Shown here: piece by piece, positions 4,730 through 63,874 of the stretch
Layout of the letters: every line of letters begins with the position of its first letter
How positions within the stretch are numbered: position 1 is the stretch's first letter
DNA from: Escherichia phage AV117
Reading direction: 5' to 3' (one strand)
Length of the DNA stretch: 64,000 nucleotides
Sequence record: OR352947.1
The notes under the pieces: model-generated
The model's database searches: none
What the model was told of the DNA's origin: nothing
What the model saw: the letters and a program-made list of their open reading frames with translations, nothing else
Program-made: the position numbers and the translations under genes

Positions 4730-7441
4730 TCAAAAATCGAACATATCGAACAGAGATGCTTTCTTCTCGTAATCGAGTTTCGCTGCTGATGTGAATCCTT
4801 CAAGTGGTTTAATAAATGTCTTCTCAAGGAGAACAGTGTAGTCCATCCAATGAAGTACGTCGTCTTTAATTAAATCTGTGATTTCAGTACCAGAAGGCCA
4901 TGCGATACATTTATCACCGAATGGGTTTCCTTCACGTAAAGGCAGAACATATACTTTTTCACCTTCTACAACTTGCGGTGCATCGATATTACCTTTGATA
5001 GCCCGGTTATACGTCAGAATTCCACGAATATGGAATGGACATTTAGGACCAGGGAATCCACCTACATCATATTTAGCAATGTTATTCGCAGAAGATACCG
5101 ACGCGATGCTAATATAATTCAATTGACGGAATTCTTTTTCAAACTCTTTAAAATATTCTTGTAATGATTCTTCACCTTCTTGAAGCATACGACGAATACA
5201 TTCTTTAAGAGCTTTCTGTACTGCTTTAGGAGTCGAAGATTTCTGAGTCTCTAGACCCATGATTTTGAGTTTAGGCTCAGCGTAACGAGTACCTTCCATA
5301 TCCCACACGTTTAATGCATAACGTTTCTTACCAGTCCAGAATCCGCCAATACCTTTAGAACCAAGCGGAGGCCCAGCGATAGCTTCTCGGTCCATGAACA
5401 TTAAGTGTTGTTTATTGTTCATGTATTCACACATTTCACGGAAACCTCTATCAATAGCTGGTTCCATACGTTCACGTGCAAACTTATCTAAGAAGTCTAC
5501 CCAATGGTTGGTATCACGGAATTTAGATTCACCAACCTTATCGATAATTTTATCAGCAGATACGTAAATAGAGTCTGTATCACCGTAAAGAACGAAAGCT
5601 TCACCTTCTGTGCCACAAACTTCATTCAGATATTCATTAACTTTACGTTCAATCCACTGTAAAGCCATTTGACCAAATGTTGTGATTGCAGTAGCATTAC
5701 GCAAATCATAATAACGGAACCAAACGTTTCCAAGTGCACCATAAAGTGAGTTGATAAGCAATTTACGGTTAATTTGGGCAGTCATACCTGCAACTTCAGT
5801 ACGTTGAGCTCTAAACAACATTTCATTAAGAGATTTAGCAGACAACTTTTTAATCTTTTCTTTAATCTCATCACTGAAGTCGAAACGATAATCAACATCT
5901 AATGGTTCGTCAACAGAAAGATTAGGATTATGCAATGCCTCTTTAATTATTTCACCATTACGTTGAGCTGCAAGCATGTAACCTTTATGTTCTTTACGTT
6001 GATTAAAGACCTTAGTGATTTCGGTTGGAACTACACCGTCACGGTCTTTATAATACATCATGCCGTTAGGAGAACAACTGTACACATCAGAAGGACGCTC
6101 AGCGATTGCGTTAATATAATCATGCAGTGGAGCTACTTTAAACGTTCCTGCTATTGTTTCTGGGCTAATATTCACTTGGCGAATAATACTTGGATACAGA
6201 GATGTAAGGTCGAAACTCATTACATATTTGTATCGATTTGGAATAGGTTCCTTAACAAAAGCGCCAGGATAAGGTTGAACCGGGTGAGAACGACCTTGTG
6301 GAATCACCTTGTTCTGCTCTTTAAGGCTATTAAAAATAATAGCATCCCATGTTTTAATTGGACTAAACACAGATTGAATCTGTATCTTAGCATAATAACC
6401 CATGTCCAAGCTCAAGTTAATGAACTGACGTTTACCATCAATTTGCAATACACGATACACGTCGATAATGTTATAAGAAATATATCGTTGGTGATTGCTT
6501 TCACGAAGCTTAGAAATAGGGCCGTCATATTTCAGTTTACCAACGTTCAATTCAAATTCTGAAATGTAATCCAGAGAATATGATGGTTGATTGGTAAAAG
6601 AGAATTTTTTGTAAAGGTCAATGTAATCAAGAACAGAGATACCGAACAATGTAATGATTTCACGAGAACCATACATGTTTTCGATAACTTTAACACGAGT
6701 TTTACGATGTGGTGACAACCGTTTTGCTGTGGATTCGCCAAAAATATTCTTGATTCGGTTATACACATATGGAATATCAAATGACTCAACGTTCCATCCA
6801 GTCAAAATGACAGGAGTTTTCTGTTGCCAGAAGTTGAGATATTCCATCAACAATTCTTTTTCGTTATCGAACGGCATATAAATGATTTTATCGATAATTT
6901 CGGATGGAACTTCATCACCACCTTGTTCTTGAAGCTTAGCCGCAATTTCGATAGACCATTCTTCTACATTACCATATGGAGAATTCAATAGATCAAATAC
7001 GTAGAACCTGTCGTCAATTGAGTCATAATGGGTGATAGCATCAATCGGATGTTTTGCTTGTGACGGCTCAGGGAACCCGTCCGGAGATGTTACTTCGATG
7101 TCGAAGTTAGCCACACGAATTTTTGTATGGTCGTATTTGATTTCATAGTTATAAGTGTCAGACAAATACGCTAATTTGAAATCGTCCATGCCAAGTGCTT
7201 CAAGTCCGATATCTTCCATGCGTTTAATCCATTGGGAGGCATCACGCATATTGGCGAACAACTTACGAGTACACGGCTTACCGTAGATATCGAAATATTT
7301 CGTAGCCTGACTTTCTGGACAATGAGCAAACAGTGATGGTTTATATTCTACTTCACGAGTACGTTCACGGCCATTAGAATCGATGTAACGTTCAAAAATT
7401 GAATCACCAATCTGTTCAACCGTTAAGTAAAATTCTTTCAT
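4730..7441 (-). CDS. 43: DNA polymerase gp43 (family B with 3'-5' exonuclease)
   Basis: 903 aa; exo motifs FDIEV and YNIIDV, pol motifs DLTSLYPSII, KLLINSLYGALG, YGDTDS; sequence reads as RB69-type gp43. Confidence 0.97.
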   Translation of the reverse strand: MKEFYLTVEQIGDSIFERYIDSNGRERTREVEYKPSLFAHCPESQATKYFDIYGKPCTRKLFANMRDASQWIKRMEDIGLEALGMDDFKLAYLSDTYNYEIKYDHTKIRVANFDIEVTSPDGFPEPSQAKHPIDAITHYDSIDDRFYVFDLLNSPYGNVEEWSIEIAAKLQEQGGDEVPSEIIDKIIYMPFDNEKELLMEYLNFWQQKTPVILTGWNVESFDIPYVYNRIKNIFGESTAKRLSPHRKTRVKVIENMYGSREIITLFGISVLDYIDLYKKFSFTNQPSYSLDYISEFELNVGKLKYDGPISKLRESNHQRYISYNIIDVYRVLQIDGKRQFINLSLDMGYYAKIQIQSVFSPIKTWDAIIFNSLKEQNKVIPQGRSHPVQPYPGAFVKEPIPNRYKYVMSFDLTSLYPSIIRQVNISPETIAGTFKVAPLHDYINAIAERPSDVYSCSPNGMMYYKDRDGVVPTEITKVFNQRKEHKGYMLAAQRNGEIIKEALHNPNLSVDEPLDVDYRFDFSDEIKEKIKKLSAKSLNEMLFRAQRTEVAGMTAQINRKLLINSLYGALGNVWFRYYDLRNATAITTFGQMALQWIERKVNEYLNEVCGTEGEAFVLYGDTDSIYVSADKIIDKVGESKFRDTNHWVDFLDKFARERMEPAIDRGFREMCEYMNNKQHLMFMDREAIAGPPLGSKGIGGFWTGKKRYALNVWDMEGTRYAEPKLKIMGLETQKSSTPKAVQKALKECIRRMLQEGEESLQEYFKEFEKEFRQLNYISIASVSSANNIAKYDVGGFPGPKCPFHIRGILTYNRAIKGNIDAPQVVEGEKVYVLPLREGNPFGDKCIAWPSGTEITDLIKDDVLHWMDYTVLLEKTFIKPLEGFTSAAKLDYEKKASLFDMFDF

Positions 7442-7453
7442 TTAATTTCCTTT

Positions 7454-7469
7454 AGACGAGTTATTGTCT
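7454..7469 (-). promoter_or_regulatory. putative gene 43 translational operator hairpin
   Basis: mRNA AGAC-AAUAACUC-GUCU hairpin immediately upstream of the AAAGGAAA Shine-Dalgarno of gene 43; loop matches the T4 gene 43 operator loop as recalled. Confidence 0.5.
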
Positions 7470-7488
7470 TTTGTTTGTTGATGAACTT

Positions 7489-7518
7489 ATTATACTCCAA
7501 ATGGGACCGAAGTCCCAT
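7489..7518 (-). promoter_or_regulatory. intercistronic GGGAC-UUCG-GUCCC stem-loop followed by TATAAT
   Basis: minus-strand AUGGGAC-UUCG-GUCCCAU hairpin (7501..7518) then TATAAT (7489..7494) between regA and gene 43. Confidence 0.45.
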
Positions 7519-7522
7519 TGCT

Positions 7523-7891
7523 TTAATTACCAATTGTATATTTTGCTTTCAAAGTCCAGTCATCTTTCTGTTTAAAAGAGATAACACGGAAGTTATTAGT
7601 CAAGCCAAACAGATCTTCACGAGCAGAGTCTTCAATAACAATCAATCCCCAGTCTTCAAGCAACTGAGCAATCGAATCACGTCGCTGATAGTCTTCACCG
7701 TCAATATCAACCAGACGTCCGTCCATACGCAGCATTTCTTTAAAGTGGACGATGTAATATTTACCTTGCTTTTGGAGGATATGACAAGACTGGTAAAGGA
7801 CTTTATCCTTGTTATTAGCGATGCCCATACGGGTCAAAGTCTCTTTGACTTTCAGAAAATCTTCAGGGTTCTTCAATTTAATTTCAATCAT
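7523..7891 (-). CDS. regA: translational repressor RegA
   Basis: 122 aa from MIEIKLKNPEDFLKVKETLTRMGIANNKDKVLYQSCHIL, matching T4 RegA; position between 62 and 43. Confidence 0.9.
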   Translation of the reverse strand: MIEIKLKNPEDFLKVKETLTRMGIANNKDKVLYQSCHILQKQGKYYIVHFKEMLRMDGRLVDIDGEDYQRRDSIAQLLEDWGLIVIEDSAREDLFGLTNNFRVISFKQKDDWTLKAKYTIGN

Positions 7892-7893
7892 TT

Positions 7894-8457
7894 TTACCAT
7901 TCCAATGCTAATTTTTTAAATTGTTTTTGTTCTTTCACATTTTTTGTAACTTCTTTGAGAAACTCATCAGTGACCATGGCCTTCAGTTCTTTAAGGACTA
8001 TTGGCAACTTGTTATTTTTTTCAAGGAGCCGCTTATACTCAGTAGCATCATTCATGTTGATTGTGTAATGTTTCATCAACAGTTTGATAACTAGTAACTC
8101 TGAAGTGTCTTCGACTAGTTTAGCCCATTTAGAGAATCGACGACCACGAGGAATTGCCGCCATCATATAGTTGAAGTGCGCTTCATCACTTAATTCAGAA
8201 CCGACTAAGTTCATCATGTAAACAGCTGGCATACATTCTGGGAACTGGGATAATGAGTTCTCAACCATAAATTTTGAGTAGTCGACCTGAGCAATTGACA
8301 TAGATTTCTTTTCATTAATAGCATTAATGATTTTAAAGAATTCATTCTCAGGTTTTTCTTTAAACATATCAGCACATTTTTGAATCGCATCAGCGTCATT
8401 AGACTTCCATGCAATTTGGTGCTCGTTAAGCCGGACGTCATCATCGAATAAGTTCAT
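7894..8457 (-). CDS. 62: clamp loader small subunit gp62
   Basis: 187 aa, same length and position as T4 gp62 between 44 and regA. Confidence 0.85.
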
Positions 8458-14128: not shown

Positions 14129-14153
14129 AAAAAAAGGAACTCCGAAGAGTTCC
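14129..14153 (-). terminator. rho-independent terminator
   Basis: minus-strand GGAACUC-UUCG-GAGUUCC hairpin followed by U7. Confidence 0.6.
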
Positions 14154-14329
14154 TATCCACATAGTACACCGTACAGAGGCTCATTTGAACTTTTAAATCG
14201 AATGGGCTTGTATGTAATAGTTCCTTCTGCTTTAGCTTTATCATGAGACTCTTTAAAACGTCTCATCATTTCTACTTTAGAGGAACGAATTTTATTATAA
14301 TCTATTTCAGAAGTCGGGATGTTCGTCAT
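14153..14329 (-). CDS. hypothetical small protein (58 aa)
   Basis: ATG at 14329, MTNIPTSEIDYNKIRSSKVEMMRRFKESHDKAKAEG...; ends at terminator hairpin; below ORF-track cutoff. Confidence 0.35.
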   Translation of the reverse strand: MTNIPTSEIDYNKIRSSKVEMMRRFKESHDKAKAEGTITYKPIRFKSSNEPLYGVLCG

Positions 14330-23787: not shown

Positions 23788-24092
23788 TATAATGTTCTCT
23801 CAAATTTGTGGAAGCATTTACGGCATTTCAATTTCAAGTTATCAGTGGTCCAGTTAACCAGTTGGACTTGGATAGTTCCACATTCCGGGCACGGATGTTT
23901 TGCTGCCGTTTTGGCAGCATTTTCACGTCGTTCAACCATTTTCATTATTTCGTTCCATGCCGGAGGAACGAACTCTCCTTCACCGTGGATTTTATCTCGC
24001 TGAACAAATTCAATCTTTGAACTATCGTCAATAAACTTAACCAAGCCGTGATTAGTGCTCATATCAATATCCTCTAAAAGACGTAGTTTCAT
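23787..24092 (-). CDS. hypothetical zinc-ribbon protein
   Basis: 101 aa; CPECG...CRKC four-Cys motif. Confidence 0.5.
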   Translation of the reverse strand: MKLRLLEDIDMSTNHGLVKFIDDSSKIEFVQRDKIHGEGEFVPPAWNEIMKMVERRENAAKTAAKHPCPECGTIQVQLVNWTTDNLKLKCRKCFHKFERTL

Positions 24093-25036
24093 TATAAAAC
24101 CTCAATGGCATTTCGTAAACCATCAGCTTTTGCATTCAGAGCTTTTAATGATTTAGTTTGTTCTGCAATCTGGGCTTCGACTTCTTTCAGGCGAGATTTG
24201 AGATATTCGCGTTCTTCTCTTAAGTTATCAACTTTTTCTGCTTTAGGCTCTTTAATAGGCTTATACTCGTTAGGGTTCTTCAACTTAATTTGAATGCGAG
24301 AACTGTATAACATTGAACCATTATCTTCGGTTTCATCATACATTTCTACCACGTCCATGATTCTTAACATCATGCGAAGTTTATAAGACAGCGAACGAAT
24401 GGTTTTGTTGTGCTTATTAATTTCTTCGGCTTTCATGGTACCGAGATTACGTGAGTAGTAATAAGGAACCTGGATATCAATTGATAATGATGCGGTACCA
24501 TTACCTGTTGGTTTGAACACTGCAGTAACCCAATCTTTAGCATGAACTGTATTTGTACGATCATCGCCACCTGTGAATAATTTACGTGAATGTTTAAAAA
24601 GCATATTCACTTGGTTATTGAATTCACAAGCAAATTTATCAGCAAATTTAGTTTCAGGAATGGTAGTTAACCAATCAGCCAAATGAGTCTTTTTAACATC
24701 ATTAACAATAGTGAATTCAACCAAATCGGTTTTAGATGTCACAGATTTAATAAAGCTCGGCTTCATAAAGTTTTTAATGTTATCGCGAGCTACAGTAGAA
24801 GATAATAAACGAGAACGTTTGAACCATTGAAGCAGTGTCCCTAATGAATGAGAATACGCATTCTGAGTATCTTTACAGATATGATTTTCTTGGCCTGTGT
24901 ATGTACCAAAATCGCGAAGAATACCACTTACTACATCTCGGTGTGGAACATCAAATCCTAGTGCACCAGTAGCGCGCTGAGCATGAACGTTAGCGATAAG
25001 ACCTGCAAAATAATCAATGTAATGTGAACGTGTCAT
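24092..25036 (-). CDS. hypothetical protein with C-terminal coiled coil (paralog family member 1)
   Basis: 314 aa; C-terminal heptad-rich tail; own upstream early promoter. Confidence 0.55.
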   Translation of the reverse strand: MTRSHYIDYFAGLIANVHAQRATGALGFDVPHRDVVSGILRDFGTYTGQENHICKDTQNAYSHSLGTLLQWFKRSRLLSSTVARDNIKNFMKPSFIKSVTSKTDLVEFTIVNDVKKTHLADWLTTIPETKFADKFACEFNNQVNMLFKHSRKLFTGGDDRTNTVHAKDWVTAVFKPTGNGTASLSIDIQVPYYYSRNLGTMKAEEINKHNKTIRSLSYKLRMMLRIMDVVEMYDETEDNGSMLYSSRIQIKLKNPNEYKPIKEPKAEKVDNLREEREYLKSRLKEVEAQIAEQTKSLKALNAKADGLRNAIEVL

Positions 25037-25064: not shown

Positions 25065-25094
25065 ATTATACTCCAACCATCCTTGGTTGTAAAC
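25065..25094 (-). promoter_or_regulatory. early-type promoter
   Basis: minus-strand GTTTAC-N18-TATAAT with embedded CAACCA/TGGTTG inverted repeat. Confidence 0.5.
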
Positions 25095-25098
25095 TGAT

Positions 25099-26031
25099 TT
25101 ATGATTTTAATGCATTCATTGCGTTAAAAAGTTTAGAGTACTGCAACTGGAGCTTGGTAACTACTTGTTGAGCATCACGAAGCTTAGCTTGTGCTTTGTC
25201 AAGTTCAACAGACAGTTGGTCCGCAGTGGCTTTGATTTGATTATAATAGTAATCTTCGGCAGGAAGAAGACCGTTAGAGATTTCCAGTTTAGTCGACGGT
25301 GTGCCATTAAACATAACAGGTTGTGCTGAAGCCGCATTAATCTTACCGATAGTCGGGGCGACAATAATTGACGCTTCGAACGTTGCATTTTCCTTTTTAA
25401 GATTTTTATAATATTCAGAGTCTTTGTGCCACCATGGCGCAGGAACCTTTTTACCAATAGATACACGAGCCTGGATAGCGATATGGCCCTTATTCTTGAT
25501 AACGTCGATAATATTAAGCTCACGAGAATAAATTGCTTTAATCTGGTAAATATTATCACCTAACACTTCCAACGCTTGGTGGAATACACGAGCAACGTTA
25601 TCATTCTTAGGTTTATACGTAAGAGTGAACTCGTTCTCACTGATAACCATGATTTCTAACTTATCGTAAGTATATTTCAAATGTTTCATGTTAATTGCTT
25701 GAGGACGAATACGAGAAGCAATGGCCATCAGATTGTTAAGGTTATTTCTGAACTGTTTAGCAAAATATTGTCCTTCACCGCCAATACAAAAATTACGAAG
25801 TTTCTGTTTGGCTAATAAACGACTGAACTCGCCATTTTTAATGAACTCTTTAACTGGTGTGTTAGTAACGCATTCAAATTGAGTAAACTTACGAGAAGTA
25901 ATCCCATAATATGAACAGATTTCCTCAATCTCTTCAGGAGTCTTTACAGGCATACGGATAGGATTAGGTCCTGGGGTATATGCGTTCGAGGTAAATTCTT
26001 TGATAAGTTCTCTACGTGTAATAAAAGCCAT
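25099..26031 (-). CDS. hypothetical protein with C-terminal coiled coil (paralog family member 2)
   Basis: 310 aa; NNLMAIASRIR block resembles FMAVSARLQ of 26087..27082. Confidence 0.55.
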   Translation of the reverse strand: MAFITRRELIKEFTSNAYTPGPNPIRMPVKTPEEIEEICSYYGITSRKFTQFECVTNTPVKEFIKNGEFSRLLAKQKLRNFCIGGEGQYFAKQFRNNLNNLMAIASRIRPQAINMKHLKYTYDKLEIMVISENEFTLTYKPKNDNVARVFHQALEVLGDNIYQIKAIYSRELNIIDVIKNKGHIAIQARVSIGKKVPAPWWHKDSEYYKNLKKENATFEASIIVAPTIGKINAASAQPVMFNGTPSTKLEISNGLLPAEDYYYNQIKATADQLSVELDKAQAKLRDAQQVVTKLQLQYSKLFNAMNALKS

Positions 26032-26057: not shown

Positions 26058-26087
26058 ATTATACTCCAACCATCCCTGGTTGTACAT
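26058..26087 (-). promoter_or_regulatory. early-type promoter (variant -35)
   Basis: near-copy of the 25065 cassette (ttatactccaaccatccctggttgtaca). Confidence 0.45.
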
Positions 26088-27082
26088 CATTCCTTAAGAA
26101 GTTTTACTACTTGAATAAGATTAGCTCGTTCCGTTTTATTTTTACCATTTAAGCCTGCTAATCGTGAGATTTCATCATCAGTCTGTTGAATAGTTACATT
26201 AAGTTCGTTAATCAAAGCTTCAAAGTATTTGATTTGCTCAGCATGTTTTGATTCAAATTTCTGAACCGGAATAACGTCTTGGTTCAGTTCATCAATAAGG
26301 TCTTTAAGAGCATCTTCTTGGTTGATATCATATTCAACTTCTTTTATTTCTTCAACGAGCTCGTCTTTATATCTAACGTCTTTTAGTCCTGGTGCTGGTC
26401 CTGAAATCTCTTCTTTAAGAGTACAAACATATCCAATACGGTATCCAATGCCGTCTCGCTTGATATCAACTTCGTCAATAAATCCACAATGTTTAAGACC
26501 AGAGCCGATTAGGTCAAAATATCCTTGACGTCGTCCTTCAAACGTTACACGAACTACTAAGACAGTTTTACCTGCAACCTTTTGAAGCTCACATTTATAA
26601 AAGTTTGTTGAACCTGAATACCGTGGATGAGTTTTAAAGTTCATCTGACGATCTAGGCCCATTTGTAAGCGTGCTGATACGGCCATAAAACGTGTTTGGT
26701 TCTCGTTAAGATGAGCAACAATCCATTTCAAAGGCATTTTACACTGTTCACGACCGAACAAATCAGTACGTCCTAGATTACGCAGAATGTTGTTAGAGTT
26801 AATCATCGACAGAACGTTAAGTTTATTCAGCGCGCTGAAGATTCCATCAGCCATTGATTTTCCGTAACCTTTACACGCTTTAATAAGCGCTCGCGGTAGA
26901 TTAGTATAAATTTCAGACGGCATATGAAAATCAAATTTACTAGTCAGTAATTGATGAACTTGGATAGCAATTTGCTCATAATTAAGTGCTCTGCGATCAT
27001 TATGGTCTTTAAACCACACTTTAATCTGTGAAGCACATAAACCGTTAATTTCATGTTTTACCGCATCAGATGTAATGCTCAT
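26087..27082 (-). CDS. hypothetical protein with C-terminal coiled coil (paralog family member 3)
   Basis: 331 aa; C-terminal heptad-rich tail. Confidence 0.55.
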   Translation of the reverse strand: MSITSDAVKHEINGLCASQIKVWFKDHNDRRALNYEQIAIQVHQLLTSKFDFHMPSEIYTNLPRALIKACKGYGKSMADGIFSALNKLNVLSMINSNNILRNLGRTDLFGREQCKMPLKWIVAHLNENQTRFMAVSARLQMGLDRQMNFKTHPRYSGSTNFYKCELQKVAGKTVLVVRVTFEGRRQGYFDLIGSGLKHCGFIDEVDIKRDGIGYRIGYVCTLKEEISGPAPGLKDVRYKDELVEEIKEVEYDINQEDALKDLIDELNQDVIPVQKFESKHAEQIKYFEALINELNVTIQQTDDEISRLAGLNGKNKTERANLIQVVKLLKE

Positions 27083-29204: not shown

Positions 29205-29235
29205 TACTTTTTTAAAAATATTTTAACCCCCTAAA

Positions 29236-29251
29236 GGGACCCGAAGGTCCC
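29236..29251 (-). repeat. GGGACC-UUCG-GGUCCC stem-loop (copy of 47735..47750 element)
   Basis: cccccctaaagggacccgaaggtcccc shared with 47726..47751; lies 3' of upstream gene and 5' of a promoter. Confidence 0.6.
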
Positions 29252-29256
29252 CACAT

Positions 29257-45205: not shown

Positions 45206-45579
45206 CTTATTTCCTTAACGAATTCCATAGCTTCTTCATATTCATACTTTTTAACAGCTTCATCATACTGAGCTTGGGCTTTTGCGCACTGAACTTTCCA
45301 CTCACGAACTCGAGCTCTGTGATGACGGCCTTGGTGCCAATATCCTGCCCAATTAATAGGCATTAATAAAAACGGTACAATAAGTGGTGCGACGAACATT
45401 AATGAAAACGCTGCATCAGACGATATAACTTTATTGGAATCTAAAACAGCTCCTATAATCATAAAGATTAAAAACGCTAAAGCTAAAATAGGGCCAAATA
45501 GTACTTCATTTGGGATTAATTTACGTTTGTATTCGTATGCCCAGGGCTTAATTGGCATGTACAGGGTTGGCTTTGACAT
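45184..45579 (-). CDS. hypothetical membrane protein
   Basis: start set at ATG 45579; TM segment; C-terminal EFVKEIRCK. Confidence 0.45.
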   Translation of the reverse strand: MSKPTLYMPIKPWAYEYKRKLIPNEVLFGPILALAFLIFMIIGAVLDSNKVISSDAAFSLMFVAPLIVPFLLMPINWAGYWHQGRHHRARVREWKVQCAKAQAQYDEAVKKYEYEEAMEFVKEIRCKSLNS

Positions 45580-46144
45580 ATTCTCTACATTCCATAATAA
45601 ATTGCTCAAGGATTAAATTGTTAGTGAAATTAGGACTAACAACCATGGTTTCATAAAGCGCATCAATAGCACTTAAAGCATCAACTCTTTTAAGCAAAGG
45701 CTTGCCTTCATACATAGTTTCAGAATCGACGATTAACGTAAAGTAATATTTTTTATTATCGACTAGAACTTCAGTATCGATATAAAACATGTTAGACCTT
45801 AAAAGCTTGTCTCTAAAGCCTAAGTAATCATCTGAACGTTCACTGATATAGTCCCATTCAGTGTTTAAACAACAAACAGACCACGTAGGAGCAACGAAAT
45901 CAGTGAATCTAATATCATGGTCTGCAACTAGTTTAGCAATAGCTCCGATATCATGAATCATAATACCTGGGGCTAATAAAGATTTTCGGTTATTTGCATA
46001 TTCAGTTGTCTCATAAGAAGACGACCAGTACCATTTACGTCCAGTTGCAACATATCGTAATGAATCAACTAAAGACGTAGGTGGATTTACCTTATTTCGG
46101 AACTCTTCGAACATTGAGTCAATATCATTATTTTGGTTTCGCAT
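45548..46144 (-). CDS. hypothetical protein
   Basis: start set at ATG 46144; contains EQFIMECRE near C-terminus. Confidence 0.45.
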   Translation of the reverse strand: MRNQNNDIDSMFEEFRNKVNPPTSLVDSLRYVATGRKWYWSSSYETTEYANNRKSLLAPGIMIHDIGAIAKLVADHDIRFTDFVAPTWSVCCLNTEWDYISERSDDYLGFRDKLLRSNMFYIDTEVLVDNKKYYFTLIVDSETMYEGKPLLKRVDALSAIDALYETMVVSPNFTNNLILEQFIMECREYVKANPVHAN

Positions 46145-46159
46145 GTTAACTCCTTTATT

Positions 46160-46185
46160 ATCCAAAAGGAGGACCGGAGTCCTCC
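46160..46185 (-). terminator. candidate terminator hairpin
   Basis: GGAGGAC-N4-GUCCUCC hairpin with U4 (minus) and U-rich tract (plus); possibly bidirectional. Confidence 0.45.
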
Positions 46186-46193
46186 GTATTATT

Positions 46194-46802
46194 TTATTTC
46201 AAAGAGTTAATATATTCTTGTACATCGGCAGAAGTGGTTTCGACACCGGTTGGAGTGCCATTGAACGTTTCAACACGAGTCAGAGTGTCTTCGATATCAA
46301 CCTTAGTTAGTGCAGCGATTTCAATTACATCATCGGCCGTAGAGATACCAAGGGCATTGGCTGCTCGAGTTTCACGAATGTATTCGAGTTTGATTGCCAG
46401 ATTCTGACGAGCATCATCAAGTTCAACCACCTTACGAGCAATTTCAATTCGCATAGCGGCATACCCGTCAGCTTTTGTATTAAGTTGTTCGGCAGTTCGA
46501 CGATACAGAAGACCAAGCTTAGCATGCATGGTAACATCTTGTCCTTCAGCCAGGAGCTTACGAATTTCACGTTCCTTAGAAGCTGCTTGCTTGTTCTTTT
46601 CATTAACAAGTTCGCGAATACGTTTTTCTTCATTAATAGATTTAACAGAAGCCGTTTTTAGTTCTTTGATTTGGGTAATCAACTTATCTGCAGCTGCGTT
46701 ATACTGTTCTTCGACAGTCAGATTTTTAGCCATAGCAGTACCCAGTTTAGTGCGGATGAATTCAACAAGTTTCTTCAGTGTGTTCATATTATTACCTTTC
46801 AA
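46194..46802 (-). CDS. coiled-coil protein, PspA/IM30-like pattern
   Basis: 202 aa; continuous heptad-type helices resembling phage-shock protein A; no enzymatic motif. Confidence 0.5.
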
Positions 46803-47734: not shown

Positions 47735-47750
47735 AGGGACCCGAAGGTCC
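47735..47750 (-). repeat. GGGACC-UUCG-GGUCCC stem-loop (copy of 29236..29251 element)
   Basis: 26-nt ccccctaaagggacccgaaggtcccc identical to 29226..29251. Confidence 0.6.
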
Positions 47751-47757
47751 CCATTCT

Positions 47758-63848: not shown

Positions 63849-63874
63849 GGGAGCCTTCGGGCTCCCATTTTTGT
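63849..63874 (+). terminator. rho-independent terminator
   Basis: GGGAGCC-UUCG-GGCUCCC hairpin then U-rich tract after gene 8. Confidence 0.6.

Follow-up and report, generated by a model that had tools for sequence, protein, structure and literature searches.

The element described here lies between regA and gene 43 in a stretch of 64,000 nucleotides from Escherichia phage AV117 (the window). Gene 43 (4730..7441, minus strand) encodes an RB69-type family B DNA polymerase of 903 aa, an assignment based on its translation and on structure matches, since gp43 matches RB69 DNA polymerase structures full-length (1clq, 1ig9 and others) with more than 2000 bits. On the other side of the spacer, regA (7523..7900, minus strand) encodes the 125-aa translational repressor RegA, as judged from the open reading frame (ORF), its translation, and the RB69 annotation of the homologous region. 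A 197-aa ORF with a TTG start on the plus strand (7475..8068), antisense to regA, was unsupported and was discarded. Over the 401 nt of 7300..7700, identity to RB69 and to some 100 further Mosigvirus genomes is 99.8%. Across 44-62-regA-43, the window and the RB69 reference differ at 68 positions in 3400 nt, none of them in the leader, and the first 547 aa of gp43 carry two substitutions, A336G and V446I. By these sequence comparisons, the window belongs to an RB69-type Mosigvirus, a close relative of RB69 that is distinct from the reference strain.

The spacer between the two genes measures 81 nt on the minus strand and reads, from 5' to 3' in the mRNA, UAA (the regA stop) AGC AAUGGGAC-UUCG-GUCCCAUU U GGAG UAUAAU AAGUUCAUCAACAAACAAA AGAC-AAUAACUC-GUCU A AAGGA AAUUAA AUG. 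All of its features are on the minus strand. The regA stop codon (7525..7523) lies 3 nt upstream of a C(UUCG)G hairpin of 8 bp (7500..7519, with a G+C core at 7517..7502), which is composed of AAUGGGAC (7519..7512), the UUCG tetraloop (7511..7508), and GUCCCAUU (7507..7500). Next come a U and a GGAG (7495..7499, with GGAG at 7498..7495), the latter a partial match to the RegB consensus, and a -10-like TATAAT hexamer (7489..7494) that lacks a recognisable -35. A 19-nt A/C-rich spacer, AAGUUCAUCAACAAACAAA (7470..7488), separates this -10 box from the gene 43 translational operator hairpin, AGAC-AAUAACUC-GUCU (7454..7469), with its 4-bp stem (AGAC at 7469..7466, GUCU at 7457..7454) and 8-nt loop (7465..7458), which has a UAAC core. 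Finally, the ribosome-binding region (7439..7453) consists of an A, the Shine-Dalgarno (SD) sequence AAGGA (7452..7448), which starts 2 nt past the operator stem, AAUUAA, and the AUG (7441..7439) that opens the 903-aa gp43 ORF. An operator-like hairpin abutting the gene 43 SD had been proposed earlier from the sequence (the original prediction), and its coordinates and sequence are correct; the second hairpin, with its UUCG loop, had been placed 30 nt further upstream, and the interval is exactly 30 nt (7499..7470).

Both hairpins are present in the minimum free energy (MFE) and centroid folds of the 95-nt leader (-15.9 kcal/mol, z = -2.2), in which the A/C-rich spacer is unpaired; in the predicted fold, the operator stem leaves the SD unsequestered. 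Taken alone, the operator hairpin is weak (-2.2 kcal/mol), with 12 of 200 shuffles folding equally well, and the same count is obtained when it is considered within a 37-nt context. The loop octamer AAUAACUC has 5 matches in the window against 3.7 expected and is not over-represented. On this single sequence, the operator hairpin would not exceed chance, and nothing in one sequence proves function. Because neither the 4-bp hairpin nor the octamer goes beyond chance by itself, the argument for an operator depends on comparative data and on published work.

Autogenous control of translation through the gp43 operator is a textbook example, and the first SELEX experiment was directed at this operator; its RB69 version has been examined by binding, crosslinking, and SELEX. 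The primary work on the RB69 gene 43 operator is said to be that of Wang, Pavlov and Karam in 1997 and of Petrov and Karam in 2002; Wang et al. reportedly found in 1997 that T4 gp43 is specific for its own operator and that RB69 gp43 binds both. T4 gp43 is an autoregulatory translational repressor, and its operator comprises a hairpin and a sequence overlapping the ribosome-binding site (RBS) (PMC3014915). The hairpin measures 18 nt in T4 against 16 nt in RB69, with shared loop nucleotides, and in RB69 gp43 it is the palm domain that crosslinks to the RB69 operator RNA (PMC3014915). RB69 gp43 binds the RB69 operator and represses its own translation (PMC3014915, PMC535899). The operator specificities of T4 and RB69 gp43 differ (PMC535899), and autoregulation is absent in some T4 relatives (PMC3014915).

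RB69 (AY303349) is matched with 100% identity over the 122 nt that precede the gene 43 AUG, and locus L001 (positions 1598–1922, covering the leader and the first ~55 codons of gene 43) shows zero differences from the window. Given a fully identical leader and a hairpin of 4 + 8 + 4 = 16 nt, the element is the gene 43 translational operator that was published for RB69, an identification that rests on two reviews and on sequence identity. The whole regA-43 intercistronic region is identical to that of RB69, with the 16-nt hairpin, the loop AAUAACUC, and the same polymerase downstream; the element is without difference from the RB69 reference, whereas the flanking genes have ~2% nucleotide divergence and gp43 carries the two substitutions given above. 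It is an already known element, with its cognate polymerase gene present in cis. The original prediction had proposed gel shift or RNA footprinting with purified gp43 as a check, and this has largely been done already, because the sequence has been characterised experimentally in RB69.

The T4 operator occupies the same position in the leader and has the same loop, and the order of features (UUCG hairpin, U-tract, GGAGTATAAT, hairpin, AAGGA, AUG) is also shared. The stem is 5 bp long in T4 (AGCCU/GGGCU, closed by U.G, -5.2 kcal/mol), compared with 4 bp in RB69 (AGAC/GUCU, closed by C-G, -2.2 kcal/mol). The distance from the hairpin to the AUG is 18 nt in T4 versus 12 nt here, and that from the -10 box to the hairpin 8 nt versus 19 nt. 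A review gives the T4 and RB69 hairpins as identical in their top 10 bases (PMC3014915), against 9 contiguous identical bases (AAUAACUCG) in our count, because the 5' base that closes the loop is a C in RB69 and a U in T4. The comparison with the two published operators thus bears out the original prediction on both of its structural points: the loop is that of the T4 gp43 operator (AAUAACUC, identical to T4), and the stem is shorter than its T4 counterpart (4 bp versus the 5 bp of AGCCU/GGGCU), in a leader that is identical to RB69. That prediction would also have been refuted by a lack of conservation in close relatives, and there the operator hairpin is kept, with covariation.

To extend the comparison, leaders were collected from T4, from representatives of the Dhaka-, Gapriver-, Karam-, Jiaoda-, and Muldoonvirus genera, from unclassified Klebsiella phages, and from IMG/VR contigs, the latter found by the gp43 N-terminus (10 loci) and additionally by tblastn and a pattern scan. 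The pattern scan was anchored on GGAGTATAAT and the first gene 43 codons only and conditions on neither hairpin; at its six chance matches to unrelated genes, no operator-like hairpin was present. The comparison covers about 10 lineages of Tevenvirinae, and 14 non-redundant leaders from about 9 genera were aligned with MAFFT. The layout common to all Tevenvirinae-type leaders consists of a stop codon, a C(UNCG)G hairpin, a short U-tract, (G)GAGTATAAT, 5-21 nt, a hairpin with the loop AAU-N-ACUC, 10-22 nt containing AAGGA, and the AUG.

In this alignment, 94% of the cells of the two helices are paired, and 8 of the 11 pairs show changes in both partners. Their covariation score of 0.68 compares with 0.23 ± 0.03 in shuffles (0 of 500 reach 0.68) and drops to 0.02-0.07 when the 3' partners are slid by 1-3 columns. 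The upstream helix (helix 1) is 100% paired in the 14 sequences, with four of its six pairs changed on both sides. The operator helix (helix 2) has four of its five pairs changed on both sides, and its four inner pairs are 100% paired. Among 19 distinct types of hairpin-bearing leader, nine variants of the operator stem were found (AGAC/GUCU, AGUC/GACU, AGGC/GUCU, AGCCU/GGGCU, AGACU/GGUCU, AGACC/GGUCU, AGUCC/GGACU, UGUCU/GGACA, and GACC/GGUC), all of them complementary.

By contrast with the stem, the operator loop reads AAU[A/C/U]ACUC in all 19 leader types, position 4 being the sole variable site. This position is an A (AAUAACUC) in Tequatro-, Mosig-, and Jiaodavirus, a C (AAUCACUC) in Dhaka-, Gapriver-, and Karamvirus and in the L040 group, and a U (AAUUACUC) in the Biddle, L015, and L016 lineages, in Serratia phage WSPA, and in several Klebsiella and Serratia phages. 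None of these natural loops equals the SELEX variant loop AGCAACCU raised in a review (PMC3014915). At the level of sequence comparison, such a combination of a strictly conserved loop with a stem that covaries freely is what marks a hairpin bound by a protein in a sequence-specific manner.

A covariance model built from the leaders gives 82 bits at 7439..7527 (minus strand), with the next match in the window at 28 bits; since the leaders used for training necessarily match the model, its information lies in the one strong match in the window and in the absences. Upstream of gene 43, the model found nothing above 21 bits in Krischvirus JSE, Slopekvirus BL02, Acinetobacter phages 133 and Konradin, and three Aeromonas phages. 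The element is thus missing from the Krischvirus, Slopekvirus, Acinetobacter, and Aeromonas relatives examined. An Rfam covariance-model scan of 7300..7700 at E<=10 returned noise only, with no family match.

In the mechanism that the literature on T4 and RB69 suggests, gp43 that is off primer-template DNA would bind the operator RNA. It would recognise the AAUAACUC loop on its short stem together with the 3' flank, including the SD. By analogy with T4, bound gp43 would occlude the RBS to 7439 and compete with the 30S subunit; with 30S binding blocked, no more polymerase would therefore be made than replication requires. Once gp43 is engaged on DNA, repression would be lifted, as described for T4 and RB69. 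Under this operator reading, a loop change from AAUAACUC to AAUAAGAG, or an uncompensated disruption of the stem, would affect gp43 synthesis.

The upstream hairpin, to which the original prediction gave no function, is of a different kind. Alone, it folds with -11.1 kcal/mol, and 0 of 200 shuffles do equally well. More than 10 stem variants occur across the lineages, and the loop is UUCG everywhere except in one lineage with UACG. The hairpin has the attributes of the UNCG type, namely a C-G-closed tetraloop, a G+C-rich stem, sense-strand orientation, and an intergenic position. It shares these, as well as its location right after a stop codon, with the C(UUCG)G hairpins of T4 intercistronic regions, which Tuerk et al. 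reportedly described in 1988, and no substantive difference from them was found apart from the one related lineage with UACG. That lineage is represented by three IMG/VR contigs (L040, L048, and L057), in which the upstream hairpin reads AGGAGCC-UACG-GGCUCCU and the operator has the stem AGUCC/GGACU and the loop AAUCACUC; the UNCG class and every pairing are preserved in it.

CTTCGG occurs 32 times in the window against 16.8 ± 3.6 expected, a twofold excess, and hairpin-forming CTTCGG sites show a sense-strand bias in T4 (PMC7165471). Four further C(UUCG)G hairpins with stems of at least 7 bp are found in the window, at 14154..14135 (minus strand), 29252..29235 (minus strand), 47752..47735 (minus strand), and 63849..63866 (plus strand). 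All four are on the sense strand and intergenic, three of them, all but the one at 14154..14135, start 4-6 nt past a stop codon, and several precede promoter-like boxes.

At the regA-43 hairpin, the U at 7499 and the UU that ends the stem form a short U-tract, AUUU, and the sense tail AUUUGGAG falls below the level of a canonical Rho-independent terminator (>=5 U in the 8 nt after the hairpin). A terminator scan did not call the hairpin in either orientation in T4 and KP179, and in the window it called the hairpin on the antisense (plus) strand but not on the sense strand. This antisense call was dismissed as meaningless, because no plus-strand gene runs into the hairpin. The homologous hairpin in vB_EcoM_G50 is annotated, in silico, as a 'putative transcriptional terminator'; the T4 GenBank and RefSeq records contain no annotated promoter or terminator features. 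The UUCG hairpin lies outside the operator and most likely acts as an attenuator and 3'-end stabiliser that closes the 45-44-62-regA unit. A leaky attenuator or stabiliser is preferred over a strong terminator because the sense U-tract is short and the scan makes no sense-strand call. As such, the hairpin would serve the 45-44-62-regA transcripts as a leaky terminator and shield them from 3' exonucleases.

Between the two hairpins, GTATAAT is kept in 13 of the 14 aligned leaders, and the distance from this -10 box to the operator hairpin ranges from 5 to 21 nt across lineages. The surrounding block GGAGTATAAT has exactly three copies in the window, all on the minus strand, and the other two are located 17 bp downstream of GTTTACA/GATGTACA early-promoter -35 boxes. 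Since GGAGTATAAT is shared with two early-type promoters, it is a genuine -10 context in this phage. A sigma-70 scan of the minus strand found no -35 partner for the TATAAT at gene 43, because the UUCG hairpin occupies the -35 position. We infer that gene 43 has a proximal promoter at this TATAAT. From the -35-less box, its proximal transcripts would then start ~12 nt upstream of the operator hairpin. In WSPA and L016, the -10 box is only 5 nt from the operator stem, and transcripts starting there might therefore lack an intact hairpin.

The two early-type promoters themselves, at 25065..25110 and 26058..26100 (both minus strand), have the structure GTTTACA/GATGTACA-N17-TATAAT with a shared extended block, ACC(A/G)GGATGGTTGGAGTATAAT, and precede ORFs 24092..25036 and 25099..26031.

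T4 gene 43 RNA is strongly MotA-dependent (PMC6024815), and a promoter name for the regA-43 site was not found in that paper. A MotA box, (a/t)(a/t)(a/t)TGCTT(t/c)A, was sought by eye in the tetraloop region. The -30 region, GACTTCGGT, matches 4 of the 7 core positions; the T4 equivalent, GCTTCG, is located 15 bp from the -10 box, outside the usual MotA spacing of 11-13 bp. With a spacing of 13 bp in RB69 but 15 bp in T4, the candidate failed to convince.

The combination of a hairpin with a -10 box is reminiscent of the PeSL (promoter-early stem-loop) cassettes of T4-type phages, whose stem-loop stops transcription arriving from upstream and can share bases with the -35 (Arbiol et al. 2010, PMC2839356). 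The phages in which PeSL function was demonstrated are phi1/RB49, and the JS98 g43 locus also contains PeSL-like sequences (PMC2839356). The present spacer likewise has an intergenic G+C-rich stem-loop that overlaps the -35 position, followed by a sigma-70-type -10, an SD, and a start codon, and in other genera an ORF is inserted between regA and the cassette. Unlike PeSL, the -35 hexamer is unrecognisable here, and the cassette belongs to the conserved replication core, not to a hyperplastic region.

The inserted ORF is small and lies between regA and the UUCG hairpin in Dhakavirus EcoM_005, Gaprivervirus VR7, Karamvirus CC31 (where it is named '43.1'), and Tequatrovirus G50; the corresponding loci are L003 (505..640), L004 (530..745), L020 (136..297), and L030 (439..675). 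The window, RB69, T4, and NC-G are without it. Since the ORF is present in some genera, the hairpin/-10 cassette flags a site of variable insertion.

Upstream of gene 43 in Krischvirus JSE (L022), no AAUNACUC hairpin was found; a GGGG...CCCC stem-loop is present instead, which encloses a consensus TTGACA located 17 bp upstream of a TATAAT and is of the PeSL type. The RB49 operator has a UAAA loop (PMC3014915), which was not found in JSE.

Taking these elements together, the SD-proximal hairpin and the RBS very probably constitute an RB69-type operator, and the UUCG hairpin a leaky attenuator or stabiliser fused to a -35-less TATAAT. The block between the hairpins, GGAGUAUAAU, could also be read at the RNA level, as a site for the RegB/S1 endoribonuclease instead of, or besides, a -10 box. 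RegB cuts intergenic GGAG, with a strong-site consensus of GG*AGRAYARAA (PMC3014915). The leader sequence GGAGUAUAAUA fits this consensus at 9 of 11 positions, and its GGAG is unpaired in the predicted fold and kept in most lineages. A cut at GG/AG would split read-through regA-43 transcripts and create the 5' end of gene 43 mRNA. However, GGAG is changed to GUAG, AGAG, or GGGG in Gaprivervirus, L008, WSPA, and L016, with TATAAT retained, a pattern that suggests selection on the -10 hexamer. The presence of the same GGAGTATAAT block in two clear early promoters also argues against a RegB site, and RegB is reported to spare most middle transcripts (PMC3014915). RegB cleavage is therefore considered unlikely and is kept as a minor rival or an additional role, since GGAG is less conserved than TATAAT.

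A more speculative proposal, to which we likewise assign a low probability, would make the regA-43 spacer a three-in-one switch, conserved in the Tevenvirinae, that combines UNCG attenuation, RegB processing at GGAG, and a TATAAT start near the operator, and thereby chooses which class of gene 43 mRNA is autorepressed. In parallel, the natural variation of loop position 4 might follow a lineage-specific RNA specificity of gp43. In such a switch, the UNCG hairpin would attenuate read-through from the clamp-loader/regA unit, and transcripts from the TATAAT would carry the operator at or near their 5' end.

It is far less probable that gp43 also binds the UUCG hairpin as a second element, or that this hairpin assists the operator within a bipartite unit, for example by stabilising the weak 4-bp hairpin or recruiting the polymerase. 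Both hairpins do always co-occur in operator-bearing lineages and are both absent where the operator is absent, and the RB69 operator stem, being weaker than that of T4, might call for help. Yet the spacing between the hairpins varies widely, from about 24 to 43 nt, and the predicted fold contains no interaction between them. Transcripts from a promoter at the conserved TATAAT, which lies between the two, would lack the UUCG hairpin altogether. Moreover, three of the other C(UUCG)G hairpins of the window are located 4-6 nt past unrelated stop codons and the fourth is intergenic, with no operator nearby, and the published operator consists of one hairpin plus the RBS region (PMC3014915). Least credible of all is a chance 4-bp stem-loop at the SD, or a protein-free cis structure that modulates ribosome access: the stem is indeed short and weak (-2.2 kcal/mol, equalled by 12 of 200 shuffles) and the octamer at chance frequency in the window, but four of five operator pairs are compensated, the stem leaves the SD free, gp43 binding to this RB69 RNA is published (PMC3014915, PMC535899), and the loop is invariant at 7 of 8 positions across genera with ~60-78% gp43 N-terminal identity, a conservation of sequence so strict that it argues for sequence-specific recognition and not mere structure.

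The discovery value of the locus is small, as the RB69 operator is known and is found here in a close relative of RB69. Its comparative value is modest: the operator and the UNCG hairpin/-10 module covary cleanly across many genera of Tevenvirinae, and conservation extends to Klebsiella, Serratia, and Enterobacter phages. As the operator is without an Rfam family, the present alignment could seed one.

Some additional observations concern other sites in the window. The covariance model gives a weak match at 46126..46194 (minus strand, 27 bits, E ~1e-4), between the minus-strand ORFs 46194..46787 and 45548..46144, and no CTTCGG hairpin was detected in it. The hairpins at 29235..29252 and 47735..47752 (both minus strand) are identical 18-nt C(UUCG)G hairpins, GGGGACCUUCGGGUCCCU, with a shared tail, UUAGGGGGU; they are located 5-6 nt past an ORF stop and give weak covariance-model matches of 22-28 bits. 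This repeat of GGGGACCUUCGGGUCCCU and UUAGGGGGU looks like a terminator or regulatory cassette. The two remaining hairpins, at 14135..14154 (minus strand) and 63849..63866 (plus strand), have good U-tracts, UUUUUUGC and AUUUUUGU, respectively. Late-promoter-like boxes follow them, UUUAUAAAC after the former and CUAUAAAUA after the latter, in the same hairpin-then-promoter order as between regA and gene 43.
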